Notes: a model not told the origin generated them from the sequence alone. A stretch of DNA of 64,000 bases from an uncultured Verrucomicrobiae bacterium (GCA_963762565.1 CAVXLD010000011.1:178596-242595); one strand, 5' to 3'. Counted from the first letter of the stretch, positions 36,527-53,700 are shown. Made by a program: numbers and translations.

Positions 36527-36577
36527 AAACTCAATCCGCTAGCGGCGTACTGGGCGGAAGTTCGCAAAGACGGATTC

Positions 36578-36745
36578 TTTGAACAGAAGTTAGCAAGGGT
36601 AGCAAAGTTTACAGTTCCCGGAGGTCGTTTCCGAGATAAGGATCAAGCCAGGTTTTGGCGGTGATTTCGACCCAATTACTTAGTTTGTAGCGTGTCTACC
36701 TTTGCCTCTGTTGCGGCTATGCCGCGCTGTTACCTTCTGTTCAAA
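36578..36745. repeat. Inverted-repeat element between convergent genes
   Basis: tttgaacagaagttagcaagggtagcaaag ... ctttgcctctg...ttaccttctgttcaaa. Confidence 0.65.
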
Positions 36746-36867
36746 AATCTGCTTTGCATCCTTGCTGTATGAGAAGGAATTGGGCAACGGCCCGTATAGA
36801 CGCGACCCCAATTTCGCCCCCCGATTTCTGAAGGCTGCCAGACTTATAATCGCGACCAGTCCGGCCG

Positions 36868-37515
36868 TTATTGAGTCGGGATGATGACTTCTACACGGCG
36901 ATTTTTGGCCCGGCCGTCGGGATTGTCTGCTCCGTTAGCTCCGGTGTTTGGCGCAACCGGATTAGCCTTACCGAACCCTCTGGTCTGCAGTCCCGTTGCC
37001 GGAACACCGCCCTGAGTGGTTAGCCATTGCTTGACCGAGGTGGCCCGGCCCTCTGAAAGCCTTTGGTTGTAGGGATCACTCCCTTTCGAGTCTGTGTAAC
37101 CATTGATCAGCACCGATCCTTTTGACTTGGAGCGGATAATCGTGGCCAGCTTTTTGAGGGTTTCTTCTGCCGCGGGTTTCAGGTTCGTTTTGTCGAAGTC
37201 AAACAGCACATCACCTGGTAGTTCGACTCGGATTTCGGTTTTCCTGACGTCCGCACCCAGATCGGTCATTGCCTTAGCTAAGTCCTGGACATTTGCCTTC
37301 AAACCCACCGGTCCGCCTCCCACGCCTTGGGTCGAGCCTCCTATTCCCTGAGATATGCCGACAATAGCCCGGATATCGCTGTTCAGCGTCAGAGGGGCGT
37401 TCCGCGGGTCGGCCGGATTGATACTCCTGATGTCAGGCGTCTGCGCCTGTAGAGGCGTCGCGTCCGCGCCGAAAAGCAAAGCCGCGGCCAAGACCGCGCT
37501 TAGTTTTGGGCTCAT
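36868..37515 (-). CDS. OmpA C-like domain protein with signal peptide
   Basis: DVLFDFDK, GYTDSKGSDPYNQRLSEGRA, GRAKNRRVE. Confidence 0.93.
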   Translation of the reverse strand: MSPKLSAVLAAALLFGADATPLQAQTPDIRSINPADPRNAPLTLNSDIRAIVGISQGIGGSTQGVGGGPVGLKANVQDLAKAMTDLGADVRKTEIRVELPGDVLFDFDKTNLKPAAEETLKKLATIIRSKSKGSVLINGYTDSKGSDPYNQRLSEGRATSVKQWLTTQGGVPATGLQTRGFGKANPVAPNTGANGADNPDGRAKNRRVEVIIPTQ

Positions 37516-37988
37516 TGGGAGATGGGCAGGTCTTCAAAAGGCAAGATATCAGGGATCACCAAATTGATCTTAGTCGTTGTCGCAGGTGGAGCCGGGAATT
37601 TGAACCACACGATGAGTTTTCCAGCGGCTGGAATAGGCAACGAGCCGCTTCCATCCCAACCAGTCCCGATGTTTCCACCAACCGCCGGTGCAGCCAGAAA
37701 GGCGTTCTGGCTGTCCTTAAGGACCTGGTATTTCTTCTTGTCCTGTGTATCCAGAAAGTAGACGTCAGCCAACTTATAAGAACGAATATTAGCGTCGCTG
37801 GTGCCTTTATTCCGGTACATAAGCTGGATGGTCAGAATGCCTTCCTTCGCAGCGGCCTTGATCACGTCCACTTCGAGATCACCTTGGGTGGCCGGTTGGG
37901 TTTGGATTGCATCTGCCGGGCTGGGCAGTGTACCGGTTAGCAAGAGCAAGCCGGGAAGCAACGGGAGGAGGAGCTGCTGAAGTTTCAT
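37512..37988 (-). CDS. Hypothetical secreted beta-sandwich protein coupled to the OmpA gene
   Basis: Signal peptide MKLQQLLLPLL...; KKYQVLKD, WFKFPAPP; ATGA overlap with the OmpA gene. Confidence 0.75.
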   Translation of the reverse strand: MKLQQLLLPLLPGLLLLTGTLPSPADAIQTQPATQGDLEVDVIKAAAKEGILTIQLMYRNKGTSDANIRSYKLADVYFLDTQDKKKYQVLKDSQNAFLAAPAVGGNIGTGWDGSGSLPIPAAGKLIVWFKFPAPPATTTKINLVIPDILPFEDLPISQ

Positions 37989-38170
37989 AGAACGCACCAA
38001 AATGTTTTTGGTTTGGGTTATGCCCCGCGTGACCGCTAACCCAGCTTCGTATATCAATCAGGGTTGCCATGTGCAAGGATAAAGCTGACGGGACCCCTCG
38101 CTCGTTGGCCAGGCGACGCCGTGAGCATCTCCATTGAGTATTGGGCAGCGGCTCCAGACGGTCGCGCGCT

Positions 38171-38334
38171 CCCATTTTTCTTTTTGAGCGCGAGGAACGA
38201 GCGAGCAAGAATCAAAAGCAAAATACAGTTACTCTTCCAGCGCGGAGCGGAAGCGAGCTCAAGCTTAAAACGGAATAAATGGGGGTAGCCCGTAGGGGGC
38301 AACGTTTATGCCGGATTTGAGCTTGAACTCGCCG
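38171..38334 (+). repeat. Hairpin element, empty allele of the RT-containing site
   Basis: 38171-38310 matches 45761-45902; 38311-38334 matches 47410-47433. Confidence 0.9.
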
Positions 38335-39187
38335 GAGAGGAGCGGTAGCGGAATCACCCGGAGAGAGGAATGAGAAGTGAACGCTGAACGGTGGGAAGTG
38401 ATTGGTGATCACTGTCGCCAAAGCCGGACTCCAGCCATAGCCATCCACAATGCAAAGAGGTTAATGACCATTCGATTGAAGCAAAGAAGGACAAGCCATA
38501 GGAAACAAAAATGTAACCAGATTCCCAAACCCCACTGACAGGCGAGCTGGCTCCCGCGCCCTGAAATTTCCAGCAACCATGTGGCATTCACAATGAGGAC
38601 TACAAGCAGGGTGGTTAAGGCGATCAGACGCCAAGCTCCCACTAAGGTCAATCCGAGAAGCGAAAGTGTTTCAGTAGAAGGCATTGTCGCCTGCCACACG
38701 TCGAAGAGAAGACCAACCTGCAAGCCTATGAGATTCGGGATTACCCACCACCTTTCCTTTCTCAGAGCATATCTTGTTGCCACAGCGAGCATCAGCCTAA
38801 TTCAAGGAATTTTCGCGCGTATCCCTCTGTGTTCCTAATACCAGCTTCCTGTCTAATCGAAGACGAGTCGCCCGGGTTCGCCATCGGCCTCAGTGAATCA
38901 AAAACAGGTCAGTACGCTACTAACCATGCACAAAACTTCAGAGGGCTCGACACTATCCTTTTCGTTCTCTCGATGACGCTGTTCCAATCCTCGAACGGCT
39001 TCTCATTCGTGATCTGATCCGCCGGGGAGAGCGGGAGGGGAGGAAGATTCAGGCGGTGCGGGAGAAGGTTCAGGTTAGGCTTGAGAAGAAGAACCACGCA
39101 CGTTTAGGCCCAAAGCGGCCGTGAGAAGTGAGAAGTGATTGGTGAGAGTTGAGAGGGGAAAGGCAACGTGATTTGTGATTGGTGGGG

Positions 39188-40009
39188 TCAGGGCTCTCCT
39201 GTTCCGAAGAAGGGTTTATGGCCAGAAGAAACGCACGGTGCCGAAAGAAGTGCCGTTTTTCCTATCTCGCTCAGCACCTTCTGGAGCCCCTCTTTGGCCC
39301 AAGGCTCCCATGATGACCAGGGCGGCAACCAAAACCAACCTCCAGCAGCTTCGCCAACAACAGTCGCTGTTCCTCGCGCCGCAACGGCAGCTGTCAAAAG
39401 ACAGATCAACGCAGCCCGTCGTTCATGGTGTTTCTCCATGCGCAACCGGCTCCACACCTCATCAGGCAAATCCAGCTGTTTGGAGAGTTTTGATTCTACG
39501 TTGCTAGAGGTAACCGCTGTGTCATACAGCCAATCAAACCGTCTCCCACGTTTGAAAATCGGCGCCAACTGCATTGTGGGTTCGGGCGTGAGCACTCCCA
39601 GAAAGGCGTTTGGAAATGCTTCAATTATCGGGCCATTCCGGGTTACGCCCGATACTCTTTGCTCAGAGATTTCGACGAACCGGCTGAATTGAGTGCACGC
39701 AATGGCCGTGGCGTCTCTTAGCTTTAATCCTGCACCGCAATGACTAAGCCTGGGTTTACACCGTTTGTGAAAAGGTGCCCGGACAAAAGCTTCTTCGCAG
39801 GGACGTCGAATCGTCTCCTGAGAAGCCGACGGGAGTAGTGGCCCATCAAGCGCTACAACGGAAGCGCAGAAGCCATCAGGAATCTTAAATGTTCGGCTTT
39901 CGAAATCAGTCCTCGCTAGCCAGACCGTTAATTCATCGCCGTTGAGGCACGCGATCGCCGTTGAGCGGCGCTTTTCCGAAAAACCGATGTCGACGCCCAG
40001 GAGTTTCAT
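39188..40009 (-). CDS. DUF429 family predicted nuclease (RNase H fold)
   Basis: MKLLGVDIGFS, VALDGPL, RPCE, IIEAFPNAFL, AALICLLTA, GWFWLP; start at 40009. Confidence 0.78.
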   Translation of the reverse strand: MKLLGVDIGFSEKRRSTAIACLNGDELTVWLARTDFESRTFKIPDGFCASVVALDGPLLPSASQETIRRPCEEAFVRAPFHKRCKPRLSHCGAGLKLRDATAIACTQFSRFVEISEQRVSGVTRNGPIIEAFPNAFLGVLTPEPTMQLAPIFKRGRRFDWLYDTAVTSSNVESKLSKQLDLPDEVWSRLRMEKHHERRAALICLLTAAVAARGTATVVGEAAGGWFWLPPWSSWEPWAKEGLQKVLSEIGKTALLSAPCVSSGHKPFFGTGEP

Positions 40010-40291
40010 ATGCCGAACACTTATATAAGGAAAAACCGAGCCAAGTGGTCGAGGCTTGAACGACCACAAGATGAGAGGTGGACGCGATTGGTCATGCTCC
40101 AGCATCTCCGATCTGGCTAGGCTAGACCAATCGCCGGAGTCTGGAAAAGCACAGGTTTCCGCAGTTAGTCTCAAACCCGCGGCACCAGAAGCTTCTGGAT
40201 GACACCGAAGCTCTCCTCTATTGTGATCATCAATTTGATCGCCACTTTGTCCTTTCTTTATCATAAATCCACAAACCCGCGGTGACTCGCA

Positions 40292-40921
40292 TTGACGGAC
40301 CCGAACAATCTCAAATCCGCTGCCGAGTATCTTCTTCAAGTGGCTCGCAGCTCTGAAGGCCGCCGCTATCGTAAGCAGCCCAAGATCGACGCGTTAAGAC
40401 AATATAAGGAAGAGATCTTGGAGGCACACCGCAGTGGTCTCAGCGTGCACCGGATCGCGCAGATCTTTAGGGAACGCGGCGTTGACATCTCCGTGCCCCA
40501 TTTGGTGCGAACCGTTCGACGTTTTGTCGACGAAGAGGAGCGGACCAGTGGCAGGGCTTCCGGTCAACGACCTCCTCCGACGAAAGAAACTAAGTCCCAG
40601 GCGACATATCAGGTTGCCGAGCAACCTTCTGCCCTTGTCCAGGAGGAGGAATTCGCCAAGCAATTGCGGCTCGCGCGCTATTTGGCTGGGGCCAATCTGC
40701 CGCGGTCGCGATCGCTACAGCAGGTTCGCGAGGCAAGAACGCCTAAGCAAGAGCGACTCGGTACAAAACCGACTGCTAAAGCCAAGAGAGAAACGACCAG
40801 CAAAAAAGCTCAGGGTGAAGAATTGGCGAAGGAGCGTCGCCGCGCCGGGCGACCGCTTCATAACGTATCGTCATCCGGTACGGGGCGAGGGGAGAAGCAA
40901 CGGCCTTCGCCCGGTCGTTAG
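40292..40921 (+). CDS. Hypothetical HTH-like protein with basic low-complexity tail (intact copy)
   Basis: KIDALRQYKEEILEAHRSGLSVHRIAQIFRERGVDISVPHLVRTV; paralog at 53155 differs mostly at synonymous sites. Confidence 0.72.
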   Translation: MTDPNNLKSAAEYLLQVARSSEGRRYRKQPKIDALRQYKEEILEAHRSGLSVHRIAQIFRERGVDISVPHLVRTVRRFVDEEERTSGRASGQRPPPTKETKSQATYQVAEQPSALVQEEEFAKQLRLARYLAGANLPRSRSLQQVREARTPKQERLGTKPTAKAKRETTSKKAQGEELAKERRRAGRPLHNVSSSGTGRGEKQRPSPGR

Positions 40922-41051
40922 AAGCTCGGTTAGGAGATGGCTTAATGGCCCGATTGTCTTCGCCATCACGAGTCTGGCCGAACGTTCATGCGGAATCGAC
41001 TCTGCGGACTACTCAGGCCCTCAGGGTTTTTTTGAAAAAAATTAGCCCGAC

Positions 41052-41297
41052 CTACCCGGTCTGACTTTCTATTTCGCCGAAGGTTCTCGACTTCAGTTCC
41101 ACGCCCGTGATCTGGTCCATCTGGTCCGGACCAACAACCTCGATTTGGCCAGCCGCCCTTTCGAAAACGAGTCGCATGGAGGGGGTGACCCAAACGTGCT
41201 CGCGAGTTCTCACGTAGATCGAGTCACCGCCAACTCGGTGTATGGTAAACGGCTGCCATTCTCTGGCTCTTAGGAGTTCCCGAATTCGTTCGATCAT
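41052..41297 (-). CDS. Small conserved hypothetical protein, copy 1
   Basis: IRELLRAREWQPFTIHRVGG; 75/81 aa identical to 59417-59662. Confidence 0.75.
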   Translation of the reverse strand: MIERIRELLRAREWQPFTIHRVGGDSIYVRTREHVWVTPSMRLVFERAAGQIEVVGPDQMDQITGVELKSRTFGEIESQTG

Positions 41298-41570
41298 ACG
41301 GTACGGCTATGCCCAAACGGGAAGTCCGACAAGGATGGCAGCTTCCGTGACCCGAAGACTGGGCAGCACTCATGACGCGATCGCGCTTGGAAATCAGGGT
41401 AAGTAGGGGGATGGCCACCGGCGGCGATGTTATGTGCGCCGCAAAAATCGAGCATCTTCTGGGCCTCACGGATACCGCCGGCGCTGAATCTGAAGCCTCC
41501 CCGCCGAACCTGGCAAGAGCGCGAGTCTTGCGGTTTGGTCCGCCCGGCCTATTTTTGATCTGCAAGCACT

Positions 41571-42863
41571 ATGAAGGCAGCGGATTCATCGACGAAGGCG
41601 CTGAGCATTCTTCACTTGCTGATGGGAGATTATCATCCTCGCAATTTTGCGGTCAGGCTTTGGGATGGCCGGGAGTGGCCCGCAGAAACCGGCTTGCCTG
41701 TCTTTACGCTGGCCTTCAATCATCCTCATGCCTTACGGTCCCTGCTGCAGAGTCGCGGCAGCGATCTAGCGATCAGCGAATCTTACATCCGGGGTGAGCT
41801 TGATCTCGAAGGAGACATCGAAGCTGCGATGCCGTTGGTCAAGTATTTGACTGATCGCCACTGGCCCACCTCAACGGCCCTACGGATCGGGTGGAATGGG
41901 TTCCATCTCTCTGTCAACGGCGGGTCCAAACGAAACGGGCAAAGGCCTGCCATGCTGTCCGAGGAGCTGCATTCGATTGAGCGAGATCGCCAGGCGATAA
42001 CCTATCATTACGACGTCTCGAATGATTTCTATGCGTTATGGCTTGATCAACGAATGGTCTATTCCTGTGCTTATTTTGAAACCAACGAGGAAGATTTGGA
42101 CACGGCTCAGACACGCAAGCTCGATTACCTATGCCGGAAACTGCGACTGCGCCCCGGTGAACGCCTGCTCGACATTGGCTGCGGCTGGGGTGGCCTGATC
42201 ATCCATGCCGCCCAGCAGTACGGAGTAGAAGCCCTTGGCATCACGCTCAGTCGCAACCAAGCCGAGCTGGCTAACGAGCGAGTAGCGCGGGCCAGCTTGG
42301 ATAGCCGGTGCCGGGTGGAAGTGCGCGATTACCGCGACCTGAACGATAGCGACGGCTTCGACAAACTGGTTAGCGTCGGCATGTTCGAGCACGTGGGTGA
42401 AAGCAAGCTCCCGCGCTATTTTGAACACGCATGGGAATTGTTGAGACCGGGCGGAGTTTTCCTCAACCACGGTATCGCTTTACGTGCGAGCGAGCCGCAG
42501 CCGAAGGGTCCGAACTTTATGAGTCGCTATGTCTTTCCGGATACCGAGTTGGTGCCAATCAACGCGACGCTGCGATATGCCGAAGAGGCCGGGTTCGAAG
42601 TCCGTGACGTGGAGAGCCTGCGGGAGCATTACGCGCTCACTTTGCGCCACTGGGCTCGCCGTTTGGAACTTCGTCGCGACGAGGCGCTACGAGTGGTAGA
42701 CGAGCCAACCTATCGGGTTTGGCGATTGTTCCTGCCGGGATCAGCATATTGGTTCGCAGCGGGAGCGTTGAGCGTTTATCAAGCGTTGCTCCTCAAACCC
42801 GAGGAAGGCCGCAGCGGTCTGCCGCTGACCCGGCGGGGCTGGTACCTAGCCAATGACAAATGA
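41571..42863 (+). CDS. cfa: Cyclopropane-fatty-acyl-phospholipid synthase
   Basis: YHYDVSNDFY, MVYSCAYF, LLDIGCGWG, SVGMFEHVG, ESLREHYALTL. Confidence 0.92.
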   Translation: MKAADSSTKALSILHLLMGDYHPRNFAVRLWDGREWPAETGLPVFTLAFNHPHALRSLLQSRGSDLAISESYIRGELDLEGDIEAAMPLVKYLTDRHWPTSTALRIGWNGFHLSVNGGSKRNGQRPAMLSEELHSIERDRQAITYHYDVSNDFYALWLDQRMVYSCAYFETNEEDLDTAQTRKLDYLCRKLRLRPGERLLDIGCGWGGLIIHAAQQYGVEALGITLSRNQAELANERVARASLDSRCRVEVRDYRDLNDSDGFDKLVSVGMFEHVGESKLPRYFEHAWELLRPGGVFLNHGIALRASEPQPKGPNFMSRYVFPDTELVPINATLRYAEEAGFEVRDVESLREHYALTLRHWARRLELRRDEALRVVDEPTYRVWRLFLPGSAYWFAAGALSVYQALLLKPEEGRSGLPLTRRGWYLANDK

Positions 42864-43024
42864 CAAAAACGAGCCCTCTTTAATCCTAAAATCCGAAGAT
42901 GAAATAAACCGCAGATTACGCAGATTCAATGTATGGCAAATGAGCACGCGCGCTGAATTTGCGTTAATCCGCGGAATCTGTGGATCGTAATTTGGAATCG
43001 GGGTTAATTTTGTCATTTGTCATT
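42852..43024. repeat. Element with perfect 17-bp TIRs and nested inner inverted repeats
   Basis: aatgacaaatgacaaaa (42852-42868) / ttttgtcatttgtcatt (43008-43024); inner ccgcagattacgcagatt ... aatccgcggaatctgtgg. Confidence 0.85.
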
Positions 43025-44674
43025 TCTTAGCGGCCGGGAGCGGTCCAGCAGTAAGGCAACGCCATCCCCTGAGCGCAACGTTCCGAAAGCTAGACCAAGC
43101 GCGTCGGTGAGGCGCGCGCTACAGAAAAGATCAGCGATTGATTGATTGCCAGTGCGGATCAATGCCGCCGCTTGCAAAGCCAGAGCCATTTTTTCAACCA
43201 GCCAGCGAGCGCCAAACTCCGTGCCCATTTCAGCCGGCTTAGCCCAACTCAGAGAGCCAACGAAGCGATCGAAAATGGAATTACCTCCTATGGCTACGCT
43301 GATTTCTTGCCAGAGAGCTTCGATGGTATCCGGATCCTTTTGCATGGCTCTCAGAACATCCAGGCATTGGACATTGCCGGCCCCTTCCCACAGAGAATTC
43401 AAAGGAGCGTCCCGGTAAAGGCGAGGAAGCGGCGATTCTTCAACATATCCGTTCCCGCCGAGACACTCCAAAGCCTCCGCTACTACCGCTGGCGTCCGCT
43501 TTGTGATCCAATACTTGGCGATTGCGGTAGCGATACGAGCAAACTTGTGTTCGCGCGGGTCTTGACGTGCCCGATCAAACGCATGAGCGAGGCGAATAGA
43601 CAGTGCGGTCGCAGCTTCCGACTCCAAACACAAATCGGCCAGAACGTTTCGCATCAATGGTTGATCGATCAAAAGGCGTCCGAATGCGGATCGATGGGCT
43701 GCATGATGGGTTGCTTCGGTCACTGCTTTGCGCATGGAAGCCGCCGAGCCCACGGCACAATCCAACCGGGTATGGCGCACCATTTCCATAATCGTCGCGA
43801 TCCCGCGGCCTTCTTCCCCGATTAATTGCGACCATGCCCGCTTGAACTCCACTTCGCTGGACGCATTTGAGCGGTTACCAAGCTTGTCTTTCAGGCGGAG
43901 AAGATGGAAGGCGTTTCTAGTTCCATCCGGTCGCCAGCGAGGGAGCAAGAAGCAGGAGAGGCCCTTAGGCGCTTGCGCGAGCATCAGAAAGGCGTCACAC
44001 ATCGGTGCAGAGCAAAACCATTTATGACCCGTAATGACGTAATCCCCGCCCGGTCCACCTCCATCGACTGGCTCGGCCAGCGTCGTATTTGCTCGTACGT
44101 CGCTGCCTCCCTGGCGTTCGGTCATACCCATACCGAAGAGCGCACCCCGTTTTTGAGAAGCCGGCATTGAGCGAGGATCGTAGGTAGACGAAAGGATTCG
44201 TGGTTCCCATTCTCTCGCGAGTTCCGGCTGCAATCGAAGCGACGGGATCGCCGCGAATGTCATGGTTAACGGGCAACTCGTACCTTCGTCGACCTGATGT
44301 CTGAGAAACGCTAGAGCGGCTCGCGCGACGTGCGCACCGGCATCCTTGTTGATCCAAGGCAGAGAATGGATTCGCACTTCGACGCCGATGCGCATCAATT
44401 CATGGTACGCCGGATGGTACACGACTTCGTCGATCCGGTAACCAAACCGGTCATGCGTTCGCAGCTCCGGCGGAAATCGGTTAGCCTGGATGCCTAGATT
44501 GATGATCTCTGGGCTACCGAGCAGTTCTCCAAGTTTGTGCGCTTCCGGCTCGATCCAACCGCCGCCCTCTCGCCGGACTGCCTCTTTCAGGGCCTGGTCG
44601 CTGTCGAAAAGATTGTAATTCTCTAAAGGTGGCGGCTGATTGAATACGATCTCGGGGGAATAGTTGGCGCCCAT
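43013..44674 (-). CDS. aidB: AidB-family acyl-CoA dehydrogenase
   Basis: VFNQPPPL, CPLTMT, GMGMTERQGGSDVR, GHKWFCSAPMCD, RLKDKLGNRSNASSEVEF, EALECLGGNGYVE, WEGAGNV. Confidence 0.9.
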   Translation of the reverse strand: MGANYSPEIVFNQPPPLENYNLFDSDQALKEAVRREGGGWIEPEAHKLGELLGSPEIINLGIQANRFPPELRTHDRFGYRIDEVVYHPAYHELMRIGVEVRIHSLPWINKDAGAHVARAALAFLRHQVDEGTSCPLTMTFAAIPSLRLQPELAREWEPRILSSTYDPRSMPASQKRGALFGMGMTERQGGSDVRANTTLAEPVDGGGPGGDYVITGHKWFCSAPMCDAFLMLAQAPKGLSCFLLPRWRPDGTRNAFHLLRLKDKLGNRSNASSEVEFKRAWSQLIGEEGRGIATIMEMVRHTRLDCAVGSAASMRKAVTEATHHAAHRSAFGRLLIDQPLMRNVLADLCLESEAATALSIRLAHAFDRARQDPREHKFARIATAIAKYWITKRTPAVVAEALECLGGNGYVEESPLPRLYRDAPLNSLWEGAGNVQCLDVLRAMQKDPDTIEALWQEISVAIGGNSIFDRFVGSLSWAKPAEMGTEFGARWLVEKMALALQAAALIRTGNQSIADLFCSARLTDALGLAFGTLRSGDGVALLLDRSRPLRNDK

Positions 44675-45420
44675 GAGATAGGGGAACCAAAGATGATCGC
44701 GCGGTCCCGGGTCCGTAGCAACACTCCGGGAGTTGTTTATTTTTGGGTATCGCCGGCTATCCGGCGTCTTTATGCAGTCAGTGTTTGCGTCGAAGCAGTC
44801 TTACGTCTACGGATCTCTACGGTACACTCCTTCTCGGACCTGGTCCGTTAGTCTCTAGCGACGTATCAAGCGAAGAGCTCAGCTTGAACACAACATCGGA
44901 GCGAGTGGAGGAAAAACTGGAGATTCCGCGGTTATCGTAATCGGGAGCTAAGCGATTTTAGCAACCGATCCAGAACCGCCAGCAGAGCTGTTACAATCGA
45001 TTGAGGCCCATGTGTGTCCCTTGGATCATCCGGAATTGAGTAACGTCATAGATGGGTCGATCGGCGCCCGGAAAACCGACATAACCAAGGTCTGGCTTTT
45101 TGCGTGTAATGTGCGCATCTAACATGAGCTTTGCGGAGATTATCGAGGAAGCTGCCCGGGCTGACACCGGCGGAACGGCAGGCAATCTATCGGCGGATCG
45201 AAGATCTCGATAGGGAGCCGCGATTCGAGGTGACGGAGGAGATGGCGCTGCGATCGAGGAAGCAACGCGCTCCCTTGAGACTGGGAAAGGAATGCCACTA
45301 GAAGAAGTATGCCAGCGATTTCTTGCCAAATGGGCAATCTTTCTGTGCGTACACTATATCTTCTAGTTCACGGCCCCCTAGCGACTGGTGGCATGGCGCC
45401 GCCAATCGCAACGAGGCAAA

Positions 45421-45592
45421 AAAAACCCGCGGTGACTCGCATTGACTGATCCTGATCATCTCAAATCCGCTGCCGAGTATCTTCTTCAAGTGGCACGCAG
45501 CTCTGAAGGCCGCCGTTATCGAAAGCAGCCCAAGATCGACGCATTGAGACAGGATAAGGAAGAGATCTTGGAGGCGCTGCCGCTGGGCCGCT
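45421..45592 (+). pseudogene. 5' fragment of the HTH-like gene (copy 2), broken at the heptamer insertion point
   Basis: Matches about 40273-40432. Confidence 0.8.
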
Positions 45593-45904
45593 AGCGCGGC
45601 CGTGATCCGACGTCGCCAAGGCTATGTCGGACAGGGAGGTGAGAAGTGATTGGTGATTCGTGATTGGCAATCCAATCGAAGCAACATAGCCAAAGCGGCG
45701 ATCTCTCCGGACCGTGAGTAGCACACAACTGATTTTCAAGACGTTGCAGCATGTTCCCGACCCATTTTGCTTTTTTGAGCGCGAGGAACGAGCGAGCAAG
45801 AATCAAAAGCAAAATACAGTTACTCTTCCAGCGCGGAGCGGAAGCGAGCTCAAGCTTAAAACGGAATAAATGGGGGTAGCCCGTAGGGAGCAAACGTTTA
45901 TGGC

Positions 45905-47266
45905 ATGAACATACCTACGACAGAACAAGAGGCAGCGAAGCTGAGCATGCGCGAAGCGATGCTGCCTCCGAGAGTTCAACGATTGAGACAGAAGCTCAGT
46001 AGGAAAGCTAAAGAGCAGAAGCGATTTCGCTTCTACAGTCTGTATGACAAGATCATCGACAAGGAGACGTTGACGGCAGCTTACCGCCAGGTAAGAGCCA
46101 ACGATGGAGCGCCAGGGATAGACGGGGTAACGCTAGCTCGCATCGATGAAGTTATAGGTGAAGAGCGCTTTGTGGAGGAACTCCACAACGAACTCAAGGC
46201 AGGGCAGTACAAAGCCTCGCCAGTACGGAGAGAATACATACCGAAGGCCAACGGGAAACTGCGACCACTGGGAATACCGGTGATCAAGGATCGAGTCGTG
46301 CAGGCAGCGGTGGTGCAGATCATCGAGCCAATCTTCGAAGCGGACTTCGAGGATTGCTCTTATGGGTTCCGACCTGGGCGCAATGCGCATCAGGCGCTGG
46401 AGCAGATCGCAGCAGCACTAAAGGCAGGCAAGACAGAGGTCTACGACGCAGATCTGGAAGGCTACTTCGATTCCATACCGCACGACAAACTCATGAAGTG
46501 CATCAGGATGAGAGTGGTCGATGGCGCGGTGTTAGGACTGATCAAGCAGTGGTTGGAAGCACCAGTAGTGGAAGAAATCCGGGAAGAAGGGAAACGGGAG
46601 AGGAAACCTCGACACAAAGTGACGAGAAACAGCAAAGGCACTCCGCAAGGGGGAGTGGCCTCACCACTATTAGCTAATATCTACCTGCATTGGTTTGACC
46701 GGGTATTCCACTCCGAACAAGGACCGGCTAAGTGGGCAAAAGCGACGCTGATCAGATACGCGGACGATTTTGTGATACTGGGCCGGAAAATCACACCGAG
46801 GCTTGAGAGCTTTGTTAGCGAGAAGATCGAACAGTGGCTCGGGCTGAAAATCAACCGGGACAAAACGCGCATCTATGAGGTCAAAGCCAGTGAAAACGGG
46901 CTAGACTTCCTAGGGTACAACTTCAGCTTGGCGCTTGCTGCGCACGGCCCAAAACGCCGGTACTGGCGAGTGTCTCCGAGCAAGAAGTCAGTACAGCGCG
47001 AAACCGTCCAATTGCGAGCTATGATCTCCAACCGGCAGCAACACATACCGGTCACTGAATTAATAGAGCGACTAAACCGGCACTTGCGGGGATGGAAGAA
47101 CTATTACGGTAAGTGGCACTGTGGAGCGGCCATGAAGCGGATCAACTGGCAGGTGGAAAATCGGTTGAGAAAGCATCTTCGGCGACGTAGCCAGCGACCC
47201 TGGCGAATCCCCAAAGGGAGCACACTGATGGCGCAGCTTCACAAGTTCGGACTGGTACGGCTCTGA
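45905..47266 (+). CDS. ltrA: Group II intron reverse transcriptase/maturase (no endonuclease domain)
   Basis: GAPGIDG, RPLGIP..DRVVQ, SYGFRPG, DADLEGYFD, GTPQGG..SPLLANIYL, RYADD, DFLGY, LRGWKNYY. Confidence 0.95.
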   Translation: MNIPTTEQEAAKLSMREAMLPPRVQRLRQKLSRKAKEQKRFRFYSLYDKIIDKETLTAAYRQVRANDGAPGIDGVTLARIDEVIGEERFVEELHNELKAGQYKASPVRREYIPKANGKLRPLGIPVIKDRVVQAAVVQIIEPIFEADFEDCSYGFRPGRNAHQALEQIAAALKAGKTEVYDADLEGYFDSIPHDKLMKCIRMRVVDGAVLGLIKQWLEAPVVEEIREEGKRERKPRHKVTRNSKGTPQGGVASPLLANIYLHWFDRVFHSEQGPAKWAKATLIRYADDFVILGRKITPRLESFVSEKIEQWLGLKINRDKTRIYEVKASENGLDFLGYNFSLALAAHGPKRRYWRVSPSKKSVQRETVQLRAMISNRQQHIPVTELIERLNRHLRGWKNYYGKWHCGAAMKRINWQVENRLRKHLRRRSQRPWRIPKGSTLMAQLHKFGLVRL

Positions 47267-47292
47267 GAAACTTTACTACGAAGACCTTTGAC

Positions 47293-47409
47293 GAAAGCTG
47301 GATGCAGGAAATCTGCACGTCCAGTTTGATGAGGGAGAGGGACATGAGCAATCAAGAATGGTATGCAGTCCTTAGGCACAGATGGGGAAACCCTGATACT
47401 CGCTTTGCT
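47293..47409 (+). ncRNA. Group II intron domain V and partial domain VI
   Basis: aagctggatgcaggaaatctgcacgtccagtttgatgaggg with AGC triad and GAAA-type loop; no canonical ...ctctAC 3' end seen. Confidence 0.85.
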
Positions 47410-47495
47410 CCGGATTTGAGCTTGAACTCGCCGAAGAGCGCGCCCTTAGCGTGCTTGCATCTTTGCGTGAAGATTGGAGGATTTCAACTGACGCC

Positions 47496-48104
47496 ATGAT
47501 AAAACCTTACCTGTCGGTCGTCGCCGTTCTGATTATTGTGCTCAATGCATTGCTACTGATTCCTGCCACCAGCGCCTACACAGTTCCGGTAGCGCTGTTA
47601 GGACTTTTGTTAGGACTTTTTGTGTTGATTCTTTCGTTTCGAGCAGGCGCGAAGGCCACGCCCCCGTCTATAGGGGCTCCAGCTCCAGCGACCTTGCCGC
47701 CGCCCGTCACGGCTACCAACCAGGCCGAAACCGAGATCGTGGCATTCTTCGCCCTTCTTCAGGATAAGGGCCGCCTTGTGGATTTTCTGATGGAAGACCT
47801 GACCGCATTTGACGACGCGCGGGTCGGAGCTGCAGCCAGAGTCGTTCATCAAGGCTGTGGAGAAGTTCTAAAGGAATACTTCAAGATCACTTCAGTCTCC
47901 GAGGCAGAAGAAGGTTCTCAGGTCGTCGTGCCAGCGGGTTACGCTGCCGACCAATACCGGATGATTGGGAAACTGGCCGGAAATCCGCCCTTTACCGGCA
48001 AACTTGTTCACAAGGGCTGGAAGACCGAGTACGTGAAACTCCCGCGAAGCACCAAAACCGATCGCCTGCCAGCGATCGCACCTGCAGAGGTCGAAATTGG
48101 GTAG
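47496..48104 (+). CDS. DUF2760 domain membrane protein
   Basis: Two TM helices, then LLQDKGRLVDFLMED ... VGAAARVVHQGC ... PPFTGKLVHKGW ... IAPAEVE. Confidence 0.88.
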   Translation: MIKPYLSVVAVLIIVLNALLLIPATSAYTVPVALLGLLLGLFVLILSFRAGAKATPPSIGAPAPATLPPPVTATNQAETEIVAFFALLQDKGRLVDFLMEDLTAFDDARVGAAARVVHQGCGEVLKEYFKITSVSEAEEGSQVVVPAGYAADQYRMIGKLAGNPPFTGKLVHKGWKTEYVKLPRSTKTDRLPAIAPAEVEIG

Positions 48105-48120
48105 AATCGGTGGATAAACT

Positions 48121-50001
48121 ATGGAATCTGTGGCCCAAACTTCGGAACTCGCTACTGGTCAAGTCAGCGCACGTTTCAGTCTCGGGATCGATCTGGGAAC
48201 CAGCAACAGCGCGGTTGCAGTTGAGGATTTCGAGACCGGCCGCGCCGCAATTGTCGAGATCACTCAACTCCTTGGACCAAATCGGATCGGGGAAAAGGTG
48301 ACCCTTCCGTCTGCGATCTATGTCCCGCATCCAAATGAATTCCCGGAGGACGGATTGCTCCTTCCTTGGCAAGAAAAGGGTAGCGGCCTGATCATTGGGC
48401 ATTTCGCACGGGAGCACGGCGCATTGATCCCTGACCGGCTGGTCATTTCTGCGAAGTCTTGGTTGTCGAATTTCCACATCGACCCGAGAAAGCCGGTCCT
48501 TCCCTGGAAATCGGATATCGAGGAGCAAAAACTTTCCGCTTTAGAATGTTCCTGCCGTTATCTCGAGCACATGAAGGAAGGGTTTCTGTATGGAGAGCGG
48601 GCCGAGGGGCGAACATGGAATATCACGGAAGGGCAGATCGTCATCACCGTTCCCGCCTCATTCGATGAGGTCGCACGAAATCTAACTGCTGAGGCTGCAC
48701 AGGCCGCGGGCTTTGGCAAAGTCATCCTCCTGGAAGAGCCTCAGGCAGCCTTTTATGCGTGGATGGCGCAGTCCGGAAACGGTTGGCGAAACCAAGTCAG
48801 CCCCGGGGATATCATCCTGGTCTGCGACGTCGGAGGGGGTACCGCGGATTTCAGTCTGATCGCAATCGCCGAAAAAAAGGGGAATCTCGAAGTAGAACGG
48901 ATCAGTGTCGGCGAGCATATCCTTTTGGGAGGTGACAACATGGACTTGGCGCTTGCCTACGCGCTCAATGCGCAACTGGAAGCGGCAGGGAAATCGATCG
49001 ACCGATGGCAGTTTCTCGCCTTAGTTCATGCCGCCGGCAACGCCAAAGTAAGCCTGTTCACCGATCTGGGGCTCGACCAAATTCCGATCGCCGTTCCATC
49101 TCGAGGATCAAGTCTGTTGGCTAAAACCATCTCAACTACGTTGGATCGCGCCATGCTTGAACAAATCATCCTGAACGGCTTTTTTCCCCTGACCAGTGTC
49201 TCTGACTTGCCACAGGAAAGCCGCGGCGCCGGCCTTCGAGAGTTCGGTCTTCCCTACGCAGCGGATCCGGTTGTTAGCAAGCACCTCGCGCGATTCCTCA
49301 GGCGAAGCCTGACCAACGTGAAAGCCAGTGAAACACTGGGCGCGCTCGTGAAATTCCAAACGCTCGAAGGCGAGCATATCAAGCCGACTGCCGTTCTTTT
49401 CAATGGAGGTGTATTCAACGCTGCCCCAATCCGCCACCGCGTTCTCGATTTGCTAGCGTCATGGAACGATGGGATCCCGGTTCGAGAACTTCAGGGATTC
49501 CAACCCGACCTGGCGGTTGCCAAAGGAGCTGCTTTGTACGGTCGTAACCGTGCTACCGGCAAGGGGATTCGGATCAAGGCTGGCACCGCCCGCTCCTACT
49601 ACCTTGGTTTGGAATCGACCATGCCCGCGATCCCGGGATTTAAGCCACCGATCAAAGCCATCTGCGTCGTTCCGCAAGGGATGGAGGAGGGGAGCGAGTT
49701 GCTGATTGATGCGCAGGAGTTCGGGCTCATGACCGGACAGCCTGCTGACTTTCGCTTCTTCGCGTCCGAAGTCCGCAGCGGCGACCTGCCTGGCCAAATC
49801 ATCTCCAACGCCGAGCGCGAGTTGGAAGAAACCAGCAGAATTGAGGTAACGTTACCTGCTGTCGAGGGATTTCCTGAAGGCCAGACGATTCCAGTCGTCA
49901 TTAATCCAATGGTGACCGAGCTTGGTAACCTTGAGCTCTGGATGAAACATACCCGCTCGGAGCGCCGTTGGAAGCTCGAGTTTCAGCTGCGGATGGAATA
50001 A
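48121..50001 (+). CDS. Hsp70-family (DnaK-related) protein
   Basis: GIDLGTSNS, SAKSWL, ITVPASFD, LEEPQAA, DVGGGTADF, GGDNMD, LFNGG. Confidence 0.9.
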   Translation: MESVAQTSELATGQVSARFSLGIDLGTSNSAVAVEDFETGRAAIVEITQLLGPNRIGEKVTLPSAIYVPHPNEFPEDGLLLPWQEKGSGLIIGHFAREHGALIPDRLVISAKSWLSNFHIDPRKPVLPWKSDIEEQKLSALECSCRYLEHMKEGFLYGERAEGRTWNITEGQIVITVPASFDEVARNLTAEAAQAAGFGKVILLEEPQAAFYAWMAQSGNGWRNQVSPGDIILVCDVGGGTADFSLIAIAEKKGNLEVERISVGEHILLGGDNMDLALAYALNAQLEAAGKSIDRWQFLALVHAAGNAKVSLFTDLGLDQIPIAVPSRGSSLLAKTISTTLDRAMLEQIILNGFFPLTSVSDLPQESRGAGLREFGLPYAADPVVSKHLARFLRRSLTNVKASETLGALVKFQTLEGEHIKPTAVLFNGGVFNAAPIRHRVLDLLASWNDGIPVRELQGFQPDLAVAKGAALYGRNRATGKGIRIKAGTARSYYLGLESTMPAIPGFKPPIKAICVVPQGMEEGSELLIDAQEFGLMTGQPADFRFFASEVRSGDLPGQIISNAERELEETSRIEVTLPAVEGFPEGQTIPVVINPMVTELGNLELWMKHTRSERRWKLEFQLRME

Positions 50002-50041
50002 TCCTCGAGGCCCGGATCATACCGTGTCCTACGTGACATCG

Positions 50042-50061
50042 CACCTTCGGCGCCGAAGGTG
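50042..50061. repeat. Perfect 20-nt palindrome between the two Hsp70 genes
   Basis: caccttcggcgccgaaggtg. Confidence 0.55.
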
Positions 50062-50131
50062 TCCTCAATGGCAAACGCCTTTAGCCATTAACTCGCGAAC
50101 AATCCTGGCTTAACTTCCTAACAGGACTGCT

Positions 50132-52879
50132 ATGGCAAAATTCAGCATCGGCATCGACCTTGGCACAACAAATTGCGCCATGGCATTCGCGCCTCTCGAA
50201 ACCGCCAATCCGCATTCGAAGACATTTCTAATTTCCCAATGGGAAACCTTGACCGGATTTTCAGAGGCTTCGACGCTGCCTTCCTTTCTTTACCTGCCAA
50301 CGGAATACGAAGTCGCCCAGATTTCGCGACAAGGCACAAGGACAGGGGAATGGATCCCAGGTCGCCTTGCAAGAAAGCAAGCGGTCGAATCACCCGGACG
50401 TGTGGCACACTCCGCCAAGTCGTGGCTGTGCCATCACTCGGTGGATCGAAGTGCACCCTTTCTCCCCTGGCGATCGGACGAAGTCCCTGTCGAGAAAAGG
50501 ATTTCACCGATCCGAGCATCCGCGCTTCTACTCGAATACCTTCGCATCGCCTGGGATATGCAGCTCGCCCACGAGGGTGCCCATTTCGACGAACAAGAGA
50601 TTACTATCACCGTTCCGGCATCTTTCGATGCAGCCGCACAACGCCTCACTTTGGACGCCGCGTCGGAAGCTGGTTTTCCGGAAACGGTCCGATTGTTGGA
50701 GGAACCACAGGCAGCATTTTACTGTTGGCTGGAGCAGCATCGAGGCCGGGACGGGCTCTGGGAGCGGATTCCTGGCAACCGCGCTCACCACGTACTTGTC
50801 ATTGATATCGGCGGCGGTACCTCCGATTTCAGCCTTTTCGAGATCACTCGTCGAAGCGGAACGACGCCTCCGAACATTAAACGAATCGCAGTGGGTGACC
50901 ATCTGCTTCTTGGCGGCGACAACATCGATCTCGCGCTGGCGCACCATGTAGAATCGCGACTGGCAAACGACGAGCTTTCCCCAACCCAATGGAATTTTCT
51001 CGTGGCTCGCTGTCGCGATGTGAAGGAGCGCTGCCTAACCGAGCCCTCCGGAGATTCCTTTCCGGTCTCGATCCCCGGACGCGGATCGAGTCTGCTCGGC
51101 GGCGCGCTTAGTGCCAGGATCACGCGTGCCGAGGTTGAGTCGATCGTGCTGGACGGATTTTTCCCCGAGTGTGATTCCGGTGAACGGCCAGCGCGAACCC
51201 AGGCTGGGTTGCGAGAATGGGCCCTCCCTTACGCTGCGGACAGTGCGGTTACGCGCTACCTCGCCGAGTTTCTTTCTGGTCTCCCGTCTGTAGAGGCAAT
51301 CCTCTTCAATGGCGGATCGCTCTATCCCGCAACGTTGCGCCGCCGGCTCCAGCAGCAGATCGCTCGTTGGCAGGGCGGCAGCGAACCACAAATCCTTGAT
51401 AATACAACACTGGACCTTGCGGTTGCCATTGGAGCCGCAAGCTTTGGCGGGATTATCTATCGACGCGCCCAGCGCATCGAGGCCGGGGCAGCCCGCGCCA
51501 TTTATCTCGAGGTGCGCAAACGGACCCGGGAAGAAAACCCGCTTCTTGTCTGTCTTCTGCCCCGGAACGCGCCATCGGAAGAAGAATATCGAATTTCTCA
51601 ACCTGGGCTAGAGCTTCGGGTAAATCGTCTGGTTAGGTTCCACCCTTATTACTCGGCGCGAGGGGACCCAAGCCACAAAGCCGGCTCCCTGGTAACGTGG
51701 AATGACCGCGATTTCCAACCATTACCTCCGCTCCAAACCACTGCTCGAATTACGGGTCCCGCTCCAAACGACAACCAGCTTCCAGTCACCCTGACTGCCC
51801 GAATGAACGAGCTCGGTTTGCTTCGGGTTGCCTGCATCAGCGCAAATCCATCGATACAAAAATCATGGTTGCTTGAGTTCGATCTTCGCCCCCACCTGCT
51901 TGAGGACGGAGACTCGGAACAGATTGATACCGCTGCCGATCTGGGAACTGAGCCGACCAAATTGGATGGTGCGCTCCACCGTATCACAACGCTTTTTTCA
52001 CGGCCTTTGGACGGGCGCGACAAGCTCACTGCCAATCATCTTCTCAAAAGCCTCGAAAAGATTCTCGGAATGCCCAGAGCTGATTGGAATCTGCTGCTGA
52101 TTCGGTCACTGTGGCCCGCTCTTAGCGAGAGCTTTTCTTGCCGCGAAGAATCAAGCGAACACGAGGAAGCATGGTTGATCCTGGCCGGGTTTCTTCTTCG
52201 GCCCGGATTCGGAGGAGAAGGGGATACCGCGCGGATCGACGACCTGTGGCGGCTTCACACGAGCAAACTCGCTTATCCCGGGAAACGCAGCCAAATTCAG
52301 CAGTATATCCTCTGGAGACGGGTTGCCGGCGGCCTGACCCAGGAGCGACAGGAGCTGATCCTGGCTCCGGAACTGCGAAGCCTGCGCCTAAAGAAAAATC
52401 TGCCTGCGGAGTTTGTTCGGCTTGTCGGCTCACTCGAAAGAATCGGCTCGAACCTGAAAACGGAGATGATCGATCTCTTTCTGGAGACCGCACCCGAACT
52501 GGCCATCACGAAACAATACACCGCACCTTATCTGGTGGCGCTTGGGCTACTTCTGAATCGTACACCGTTTTACGCCGGTCCGGATTGCGTTGTTCCACCG
52601 GTGCAAGTGGAACGAGCATTCGAAGCGTTATCGGATCTCGATTGGAGCGCACCCGAATTAGCGGAGGTACAGACCCTTTTTCTCCGCGCCGGACGGATCG
52701 TGGACGACCCAGCCATTGATCTGCCAAAAGGGCTCCGGGAAAAGATCGTTTCGAAACTGGCGAAATCCGGGGTTGCCGAGGTCAAGCTCGGAAGACTCCG
52801 CAAGTTTATACCAATCGCCGGATCGGAGCGCACCAGTCTCTTCGGTGAATCTCTTCCGCCCGGTCTGATGATTAGCTAA
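50132..52879 (+). CDS. Hsp70-family protein with DUF3731-like C-terminal domain
   Basis: GIDLGTTNC, DIGGGTSDF, GGDNID; C-terminal WLILAGFLLRPGFG, WRRVAGGL, FGESLPPGL. Confidence 0.9.
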   Translation: MAKFSIGIDLGTTNCAMAFAPLETANPHSKTFLISQWETLTGFSEASTLPSFLYLPTEYEVAQISRQGTRTGEWIPGRLARKQAVESPGRVAHSAKSWLCHHSVDRSAPFLPWRSDEVPVEKRISPIRASALLLEYLRIAWDMQLAHEGAHFDEQEITITVPASFDAAAQRLTLDAASEAGFPETVRLLEEPQAAFYCWLEQHRGRDGLWERIPGNRAHHVLVIDIGGGTSDFSLFEITRRSGTTPPNIKRIAVGDHLLLGGDNIDLALAHHVESRLANDELSPTQWNFLVARCRDVKERCLTEPSGDSFPVSIPGRGSSLLGGALSARITRAEVESIVLDGFFPECDSGERPARTQAGLREWALPYAADSAVTRYLAEFLSGLPSVEAILFNGGSLYPATLRRRLQQQIARWQGGSEPQILDNTTLDLAVAIGAASFGGIIYRRAQRIEAGAARAIYLEVRKRTREENPLLVCLLPRNAPSEEEYRISQPGLELRVNRLVRFHPYYSARGDPSHKAGSLVTWNDRDFQPLPPLQTTARITGPAPNDNQLPVTLTARMNELGLLRVACISANPSIQKSWLLEFDLRPHLLEDGDSEQIDTAADLGTEPTKLDGALHRITTLFSRPLDGRDKLTANHLLKSLEKILGMPRADWNLLLIRSLWPALSESFSCREESSEHEEAWLILAGFLLRPGFGGEGDTARIDDLWRLHTSKLAYPGKRSQIQQYILWRRVAGGLTQERQELILAPELRSLRLKKNLPAEFVRLVGSLERIGSNLKTEMIDLFLETAPELAITKQYTAPYLVALGLLLNRTPFYAGPDCVVPPVQVERAFEALSDLDWSAPELAEVQTLFLRAGRIVDDPAIDLPKGLREKIVSKLAKSGVAEVKLGRLRKFIPIAGSERTSLFGESLPPGLMIS

Positions 52880-53154
52880 CGCGTACGCCTTGACCCGGAA
52901 CCGAACCTCAGGCCGAAGCTTTCAAGCTCCACCTCGAGGATGTCGGCGAGTTGACCCCTGGAAGGAGGGATGCACACCGCGCGATCCGTATCTACCGCTG
53001 AACCCATGGGGATTAGGATCCCGATTCTGGTCTAAATTCCCCGTCAGGAGAAGCTTCTGGATGATACCCAAGCTCTCCTCTATTGTGATCATGAATTTGA
53101 TCGCCAATTTGTCATTCCTTTATCATAAACCCGAAAACCCCGCGGTGACTCGCC

Positions 53155-53700
53155 TTGACTGATCCTGATCATCTCAAATCCGCTGCCGAGTATCTGCTTC
53201 AAGTCGCGCGCAGCTCTGAAGGCCGCCGCTACCGCAAGCAGCCCAAGATCGACGCATTGAGAGAGTATAAGGACGAGATCCTGGAGGCGCACCGCTGGGC
53301 CGCTAGCGCGGCTGTGAGAGGTGAGAAGTGATTAGTGAGAAGTGAGAGGGGGAGGGGATTGGTGAAACGTGAAAAGTGAAAGGCTGAGAAATGATTAGTG
53401 AACGGTGATTGATCAGCGTCCACCGGATCGCACAGATTTTCAGGGAACGTGGTGTTGATATCTCCGTGCCCCATTTGGTGCGTACAGTCCGGCGTTTTGT
53501 CGACGAAGAAGAGCGGGCCGGTAAGGGGGCACCCGCTCCACTCCATCTAGCGAGTCCTATGGCAAAGGAACGCCAACCGGAATCGTCTGCCGCTGAAGCA
53601 ACGAAGCCAAAGGCCCCGGTCACGTACCAGGTTTCTGAGCAACCCAGCAGCAAAGTCCAGGAGGAGGAATTGGCAAATGAGAGGACGCGGGCTGGGAGGG
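53155..53700 (+). pseudogene. HTH-like gene copy 3, split by a ~116-bp heptamer insertion (53296-53412)
   Basis: Both halves align to 40292-40921; upstream region 53049-53154 matches 40187-40291. Confidence 0.85.

Follow-up and report, generated by a model that had tools for sequence, protein, structure and literature searches.

RmInt1, a group II intron of the endonuclease-less type, homes into ISRm2011-2, a multi-copy mobile DNA of Sinorhizobium meliloti (PMC1802570; PMC5894124), and is described as fragmenting mainly by loss of its 3′ end together with the intron-encoded protein (IEP) (PMC4181065; PMC5894124); more broadly, most copies of bacterial introns are truncated or inactivated (PMC4424553). 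Here we analyse a reverse transcriptase (RT) gene of group II intron type that splits a folded, multi-copy repeat of an uncultured Verrucomicrobiae bacterium, within a window of 64,000 nucleotides (the whole stretch of DNA that was analysed; GCA_963762565.1 CAVXLD010000011.1:178596-242595). We show that the insert carrying this gene, at 45903–47409, is an interior segment of a bacterial group II intron without an endonuclease, extending from the last 2–5 nt of domain IVa (D4a) to the 5′ two-thirds of domain VI (D6).

The lineage to which this copy belongs resembles RmInt1-type introns in encoding an IEP with RT and maturase domains only, in having a homing site within a repeated element that is borne by insertion sequences (ISs) in several genomes and is often empty, and in leaving inactive fragments beside active copies. 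It differs in its target, which is a folded ~170-nt repeat and not a transposase gene region, and in the form of the fragment: those described for RmInt1 keep the 5′ ribozyme and lose the 3′ end with the IEP, whereas the fragment in the window does the reverse. Class C (IIC) introns, including the IIC-attC type, recognise stem–loops such as terminators and integron attC sites. Here too the target is defined by a conserved multi-copy hairpin, but the insertion lies within the 3′ strand of the stem, following a 6-bp pairing at intron-binding site 1 (IBS1), and not downstream of a terminator; moreover, the relatives of this intron match subtype 6 of the Rfam families for domains I–IV (D1–D4), and no attC core sites are apparent by eye in the repeat. 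Target-primed retroelements, by non-LTR retrotransposition or linear-intron retrohoming, yield 5′-truncated copies, and the window copy shares with such copies its 5′ loss, a short microhomology at the upstream join, an apparently young age and its being dead on arrival; its 3′ end, however, is also truncated and flush, an outcome not expected from simple abortive reverse transcription.

A group II-type RT gene without a ribozyme is also found in the free-standing group II-like RTs (G2L1–5; PMC4424553), but these are conserved stand-alone families, whereas the window copy is single and recent, retains domain V (D5) and differs from full-length copies at 1 of 1001 positions. Assignment to the G2L group is not borne out, as a D5/D6 remnant is present and the arrangement was seen in one of the 43 family genomes and is absent from all 7 close relatives; nor is assignment to the retrons, as the GIIM domain and D5 are present and the Rfam scan returned no retron RNA family. 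The insert is an ordinary intron copy, recent and dead, and not a new kind of retroelement. It offers a natural example of an intron fragment that has its protein, lacks its ribozyme and is flush with its target on both sides, and so bears on how group II RTs mis-insert and on the origin of stand-alone RT genes.

A doubly truncated group II intron

The insert measures 1507 nt (45903–47409, + strand, as are all window features described below) and is single-copy within its genome (G000; 6.1 Mb in 15 contigs, 93.7% complete), where the window lies at the end of contig C11 (C-numbers denote contigs of this genome). An uninterrupted open reading frame (ORF) at 45905–47266 encodes an intact 453-amino-acid (aa) IEP with a YADD motif and with RT and maturase (X) domains, recognised by Pfam as RVT_1 (2.4e-36) and GIIM (1.8e-11); Pfam found no endonuclease domain in this protein and nothing beyond these two families. 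The ORF is followed by a D5 hairpin at 47295–47329, placed by alignment to Rfam RF00029 and by folding and conserved in its fold with the relatives, and then by 47330–47409, which make up the 5′ strand and the inner portion of a D6 of unusual length, delimited by comparing the folds of L163, L040, L164 and L190 with that of the window (L-numbers denote individual loci holding a relative or a repeat). Rfam Intron_gpII (RF00029, D5–D6) matched 47293–47404 with 39.3 bits (E 7e-5), 0.7 bits below its gathering score of 40. The Rfam D1–D4 families had no match across 36000–50000 at E≤1.

What the insert lacks is clear from its closest kin. All seven close relatives of the RT (80–96% aa identity) are complete introns, leaving the window copy as the sole truncated form among the eight. 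A typical relative is ~2035 nt long, with ~493 nt of D1–D4a before the same ATG and 37 nt more at the 3′ end, such that similarity to the window runs from the ATG to 47409 while the relatives extend both ways. The closest, L163 (96% aa and 93.7% nucleotide identity), is an intron of 2035 nt with 493 nt before the ATG. The nearest relative from a genome, on contig 461 of G014 (L021, the same as L040), has an RT of 90% aa identity, aligns with 45905–47409 at 87.5% and carries RF02005 (D1–D4) upstream of its ORF (63.9 bits, E-value mode). On six metagenome contigs, with RTs of 80–96% aa identity, a 5′ region of ~505 nt lies directly before the ATG and is 85–88% identical to that of L040 (one of the six is cut by the contig end). 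The introns of the full-length relatives begin GTGCGCC, and all five relatives whose 3′ end lies on the contig extend 37 nt past the right junction of the window copy and end ...CTAC. The IEP itself has the same length, 453 aa, in L163, L166 and L040.

Two broader scans were limited in sensitivity. Gathering-mode cmscan of the loci of 20 relatives detected D1–D4 in 6 and missed L040, and this count was not used to judge completeness. A narrow hidden Markov model of the 5′ end, derived from six close introns, was applied to 116 more distant RT loci with 560 nt or more upstream and recognised 70; among the 46 that it missed are L044, L056 and L076, which have Rfam D1–D4 matches, so that a miss reflects the reach of the model and not absence of a 5′ end.

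Missing from the window copy are thus D1–D3 and D4a (~493 nt) and the last 37 nt, which by fold comparison correspond to the 3′ strand of D6 with its bulged branch A and to the 3′ splice site. The features of a mobile group II intron are accordingly divided: the RT–maturase, D5 and an insertion site of the type used by the lineage are there, whereas the 5′ domains I–III, with their GUGYG start and exon-binding sites (EBS), and the branch A and AY end of D6 are not. With no D1–D3, EBS, branch point or 3′ splice site, splicing and mobility are impossible, and the insert permanently splits its copy of the repeat. A first-pass annotation of the window, made from the sequence alone, had already noted that neither intron end is recognisable, and the comparison with relatives and the covariance models agrees; domains I–III upstream of 45905, a finding that would have told against it, did not appear in the covariance search.

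The folded repeat as homing site

The insert is bounded by the two halves of a hairpin repeat. The 5′ half, at 45761–45902, forms the 5′ exon, contains IBS1 and has the near-invariant end ...GTTTATG; the 3′ half, at 47410–47440, forms the 3′ exon, starts CCGGATT and is 97% identical to 38311–38339. An uninterrupted copy, which we interpret as an empty homing site, lies at 38171–38345 (predicted RNA fold −59.8 kcal/mol, z −2.95). A repeat search aligned 38181–38302 with 45772–45893 at 99% and 38311–38339 with 47410–47438 at 97%, and gapped BLAST of 45761–45902 against 38171–38310 gave 97.2% over 142 columns. The halves are contiguous at 38310/38311 and are separated by 1507 nt at 45902/47410. 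Direct reading and the repeat search therefore uphold what the first-pass annotation had described, namely a 1507-bp insert of RT/maturase, D5 and partial D6 splitting a hairpin, with an empty copy at 38.2 kb.

A still closer empty allele lies on contig C7, where C7:27602-28081 is 98.6% identical to window 45421–45902 and C7:28082-33843 is 99.2% identical to window 47410–53175. These C7 and C11 regions are a recent 6-kb duplication, and the insert is the only difference between them. In the whole genome there are nine full copies of the repeat (five on C7, two on C11, one on C10 and one on C12) plus a 34-nt fragment. The count of empty and filled alleles, which had been proposed as a check, came to eight empty, including 38171–38345, and one filled.

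The full-length relatives occupy the same place. In L166 and L200 the 5′ exon is similar to the repeat family (E 3e-15 and 3e-18) and stops at the same base, the 5′ exon of L040 has a 19-nt exact match to the repeat at the insertion position, and the 3′ exons of L040, L190 and L165 begin, as read by eye, with CCGGATT or CCGGCTT like the 3′ arm of the repeat. The insertion site of the window copy, after GTTTATG and before CCGG, is the same base as that of the full-length lineage members, and its exon ends CGTTTATG, as do those of L040, L166 and L200. For L163 and L164 the host is a variant repeat, with TTAAG at the exon end in place of TTATG. The candidate EBS1 in domain I reads CTTAAAG in L163 and L164 and CATAAAG in L040, L166 and L200; this candidate, C(A/T)TAAAG, covaries with position −2 of IBS1 in five of six relatives, with L190 as the misfit. 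Because full-length members stand at the same position of the same repeat family and their candidate EBS1 can pair with it, sequence comparison identifies the repeat as the site into which this lineage homes, and the 38.2-kb copy, like the genome's seven other empty copies, is an unoccupied site. A homing site is thereby identified for an intron lineage of soil Verrucomicrobia: a conserved repeat that folds, and sub-lineages of the intron show EBS1/IBS1 co-variation. When 80 RT loci from genomes were searched with the repeat by BLAST, no match appeared, a search that split or diverged exons escape.

These results alter the first-pass proposal of a truncated intron relic captured in a repeat: the double truncation stands, and capture gives way to insertion at a natural homing site. 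The first-pass reading as a whole was to fall if the closest homologues were all complete introns and the hairpin context occurred only once. The homologues are indeed all complete; the hairpin context does recur, but homing is an ordinary explanation for that.

We also considered, as an alternative EBS1, an intron-internal motif resembling the 5′ arm of the repeat (GGAATAAATAACCGG type). It is present in the ribozyme of all six full-length relatives, at ~360–375 of the 5′ part, and showed no co-variation with the exons. Among more distant RTs of the clade (50–60% aa; L041–L119 and L167–L242), introns are inserted right after arrays of tandem 7–9-nt units; the clade appears to be specialised for targets within repeated DNA.

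The repeat has a conserved structure. Twenty-seven distinct copies, from this and related genomes, share one fold with 30 predicted pairs, of which 97.3% of the alignment cells are paired; compensatory changes occur in 13 of the 30 pairs, none of 500 shuffles reached any of the five measures used, and slid controls of the alignment were 25–40% paired. The fold combines a hairpin on the 5′ side, whose GCGAGGAACGAGCG-type loop region is invariant, with a long one on the 3′ side. The stem between the flanks of the insert, to which the first-pass annotation had drawn attention, corresponds to helices 4–5 of this structure and is not a chance pairing, and the intron site lies inside helix 5, after an invariant GUUUAUG. 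The stem as first drawn, however, included 47404–47409, which belong to the insert and pair only incidentally with ...aataaa; in empty copies the corresponding partner is the tttat of the 5′ half. G·U cells outnumber A·C cells by 53 to 4 in the alignment, and this excess identifies the folded strand as the + strand, which is also the strand of the intron. Two copies, C7:23033-23273 and C7:26367-26600, carry an extra hairpin of 60–80 nt in the apical loop, a variable tip that is distinct from the intron site.

Age and origin of the insert

At the left junction, TGG (45901–45903) is common to the end of the exon and to the intron, making the junction ambiguous by 3 nt. The two nucleotides noted earlier before the ORF are present at 45903–45904, and their nature can now be specified: this GC represents intron D4a bases, as the full-length form in sequencing run X1 (X-numbers denote sequencing runs) reads ...TTGGC before the ATG. 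Both repeat halves are complete to the base, and both truncations are flush with the exon boundaries. Each junction string was found in one of the 43 family genomes, that of the window, and in none of the 42 others.

The window copy seems very young. Runs X1–X4, all from one study, contain 0.95 of the sampled words of 45700–47600, and X1 contigs match the unique flanks of the window without a difference, so that X1 is probably the source sample. A 1292-nt contig of X1 covers 45901–46901 with one difference (at 45936) in 1001 bases and runs upstream into D4a, and two X1 contigs extend past 47409 into the 37-nt tail. Contig depth in X1 is ~82–89 on the ORF and 18.6–19.8 on the unique flanks, values that are depths and not copy numbers. 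Runs from two other DNA studies and one RNA library showed only full-length ends, at 93–97% identity. The presence of full-length copies differing at 1 of 1001 bases in the probable source sample points to a young copy, whose ORF is for that reason still open. The substitutions specific to the window copy are eight synonymous and five non-synonymous (pN/pS 0.19, compared with 0.15–0.26 in the relatives).

Taken together, the data make it highly probable that the insert is a very young, truncated intron fragment, presumably inserted in an aberrant manner at the homing site of its lineage. How it arrived is less certain. The mechanism that we favour, tentatively and as a plausible course more than a probable one, is a single aberrant retrohoming event by end-to-end template switching. 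The homing site in the repeat would have been cleaved, giving two DNA ends; a processed internal intron RNA would have served as template for the intron RT; and the enzyme would have switched templates end to end at both DNA ends of the cleaved site. The completeness of both exon halves to the base argues for one such event, and the TGG overlap at the left junction fits insertion by template switching. The proposal draws on properties that we take group II RTs to have.

Several observations weigh against this account. The right junction (47409/47410) shows no microhomology. The assembly holds no full-length donor copy (its completeness being 93.7%), and a search for the 493-nt 5′ part returned a single 41-nt match of 83%, inside another intron. 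Short-query BLAST of exon pieces against the repeat gave no significant match for 7 of 11, namely every one of the five 3′ exons and, among the 5′ exons, those of L190 and L163, for all of which the likeness was read by eye; and L163, the closest relative, carries an EBS1 that pairs with TTTAAG and not with the TTTATG of the window, which bears on the EBS1 variant of the donor. Among the assembled contigs listed for X1, X5, X6 and X15, none bridges 45902/45903 or 47409/47410, although such contigs drop minor variants and low-depth branches, and a missing bridging contig does not prove absence. By an arithmetic estimate, the missing 5% of words in X1–X4 roughly equals the two junction spans plus the difference at 45936. 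In keeping its IEP and losing its ribozyme, the fragment is the opposite of RmInt1-type fragmentation. Finally, a limited literature search found no precedent for an internal fragment flush at both ends.

The main competitor, which we regard as unlikely yet not negligible, is that a full-length intron homed normally and that two later DNA deletions, by replication slippage or illegitimate recombination, removed its first ~493 nt and last 37 nt. The 3-nt TGG overlap would also fit a microhomology-mediated deletion, and fragmentation of bacterial introns is common (PMC4424553). Both deletions, however, would have had to stop exactly on exon boundaries, the right junction offers no microhomology, and a divergence of 1 in 1001 bases from full-length copies leaves little time for two independent events. 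Two later random deletions therefore fit less well than one aberrant retrohoming event.

A more specific form of the template-switching proposal, for which we would claim rather less, holds that the insert arose in one step as a retrocopy of, essentially, the messenger for the IEP plus D5, pasted in by template switching, and is a snapshot of the birth of a free-standing RT gene. If so, it would be a bacterial counterpart of processed-pseudogene insertion, and an RT placed 2 nt behind the AUG of the repeat, with overlapping stop and start, would capture the emergence of a free-standing group II-like RT gene.

It is improbable that the truncated arrangement is an artefact of assembly or consensus, with a full-length intron or an empty repeat at the real locus. 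The listed X1 contigs connect the ORF with the 5′ and 3′ parts of the full-length intron, none of the listed contigs spans the assembled junctions, and the 0.95 share of words in X1–X4 is what loss of both junction spans and one single-nucleotide polymorphism would leave. Against this, the window copy has a private base at 45936, and Logan contigs drop low-depth branches between high-depth repeats, the genome here standing at ~19x and the intron at ~82x. We know of no assembler behaviour that would delete 493 and 37 nt flush with a target, with 3 and 0 bases in common.

The first-pass annotation had offered a further idea: that the RT was recruited for the hairpin family, with the 38.2-kb copy as partner or substrate. 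A nascent, free-standing enzyme of group II-like type, acting on or regulated by the repeats, would have amounted to a new kind of retroelement. In its favour, the ORF lacks a ribozyme and is intact, it starts 2 nt after the conserved AUG of the repeat with a UGA/AUG overlap, and free-standing group II-like RTs exist (PMC4424553). The idea is nevertheless very improbable and finds no support. The other seven of the eight close lineage members, that is, all seven homologues, are complete introns; the junctions recur in none of the 42 other family genomes; the insert still carries its D5 relic; and the hairpin family is widespread without any RT (29 of 43 genomes). Nor does the protein show either an excess or a relaxation of change: a pN/pS like that of the relatives and near-identity to active-looking full-length copies give no sign of recruitment. 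Least credible of all is a split, trans-splicing intron of which the insert would be the 3′ half, since, although the IEP and D5 are kept and fragmented introns can work in trans (PMC3410883), the genome has nothing like the 493-nt 5′ part beyond the 41-nt match mentioned above, and the insert also lacks a branch point and a 3′ splice site.

As an observation in its own right, the repeat AUG at 45900–45902 is followed by GCA and UGA, and this UGA overlaps the RT start codon at 45905. Such an overlap, made by the junction, is a possible termination–reinitiation arrangement, and judging from the sequence the RT ORF may still be translated in the window copy.

Distribution and surroundings of the repeat

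The repeat is a well-supported structured multi-copy element without an Rfam match. BLAST found it in 29 of the 43 family genomes, that of the window included, with up to 16 matches per genome. Rfam 15 gave no match on 38171–38345 at E≤1 and none on the repeats of L004, L127 and L130 at E≤0.5; the repeat of L132 gave a sub-threshold match to mir-218 (29.7 bits against 62). An uninterrupted copy occurs on a contig of an RNA library, a faint hint that the repeat is transcribed.

In several genomes the repeat is associated with mobile DNA. In genome G063 it lies inside all eight examined copies of a 1.56-kb ISL3-family element (99.7–100% identical), where it is situated between the left inverted repeat and the start of the transposase gene, on the opposite strand. 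Across other loci, 13 of 54 ORFs flanking repeat copies are transposase genes (five ISL3, three IS21 istB, one IS21 istA-like, three IS110 and one IS200-like) and two encode tyrosine recombinases. Being multi-copy, without a match in Rfam and carried inside ISL3-family insertion sequences in some genomes, the repeat merits study of its own.

Other identities for the repeat were considered. An ISL3 origin of the copies in the window's genome was rejected, as that genome has no ISL3 transposase and has only IS positions 54–204 in common with the element, without the terminal inverted repeat. Integron attC sites were likewise set aside: no core-site motifs were seen by eye, no formal attC model being applied, and the spacing of 1.6–14 kb on C7 is unlike a cassette array. 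A leader peptide read from the repeat AUG is not a general function, since the ORFs range from 7 to 101 codons and 1 of 27 overlaps a downstream gene start; changes in the arms that are non-synonymous yet compensated in the stem also count against it. That one case is the empty paralogue on C7 (C7:28082-28170; window 47410–47499), where a 30-codon ORF begins at the AUG and its UGA overlaps the start codon (ATG) of a DUF2760 gene. As regards REP/REPIN elements, which are short palindromes in inverted pairs associated with a Y1 (RAYT) transposase, 1 of the 54 flanking ORFs is a Y1_Tnp (L137); the strand-specific G·U excess argues for a single folded strand.

Upstream of the occupied repeat, the segment 45421–45760 is common to other copies and comprises a relic of the 5′ end of a small helix–turn–helix (HTH)-like gene, an intact copy of which lies at 40292–40921, a heptamer array and a block of ~40 nt that is conserved ahead of six repeat copies. 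Runs of GTGATTG-type heptamers flank repeat copies at 45636–45667, 38391–38407 and 39128–39184, and a 30-nt version recurs on eight contigs, on both strands.

A second, unrelated group II intron RT lies in the same genome at C7:606400-607000 (L002), with a D5–D6 match of 53.8 bits and no Rfam D1–D4 match. Acido-Lenti-1 RNA (RF01687) scored above its gathering threshold at two loci, L079 (1453–1498), near an intron, and L132 (1140–1194), near an IS110 gene and a repeat copy. Downstream of the insert, a three-gene unit encoding a DUF2760 protein, an Hsp70-like protein and an Hsp70-like protein with DUF3731 (window 47451–52879) is duplicated at 99% between C11 and C7, and the duplicated regions of both contigs are mosaics of shared segments.

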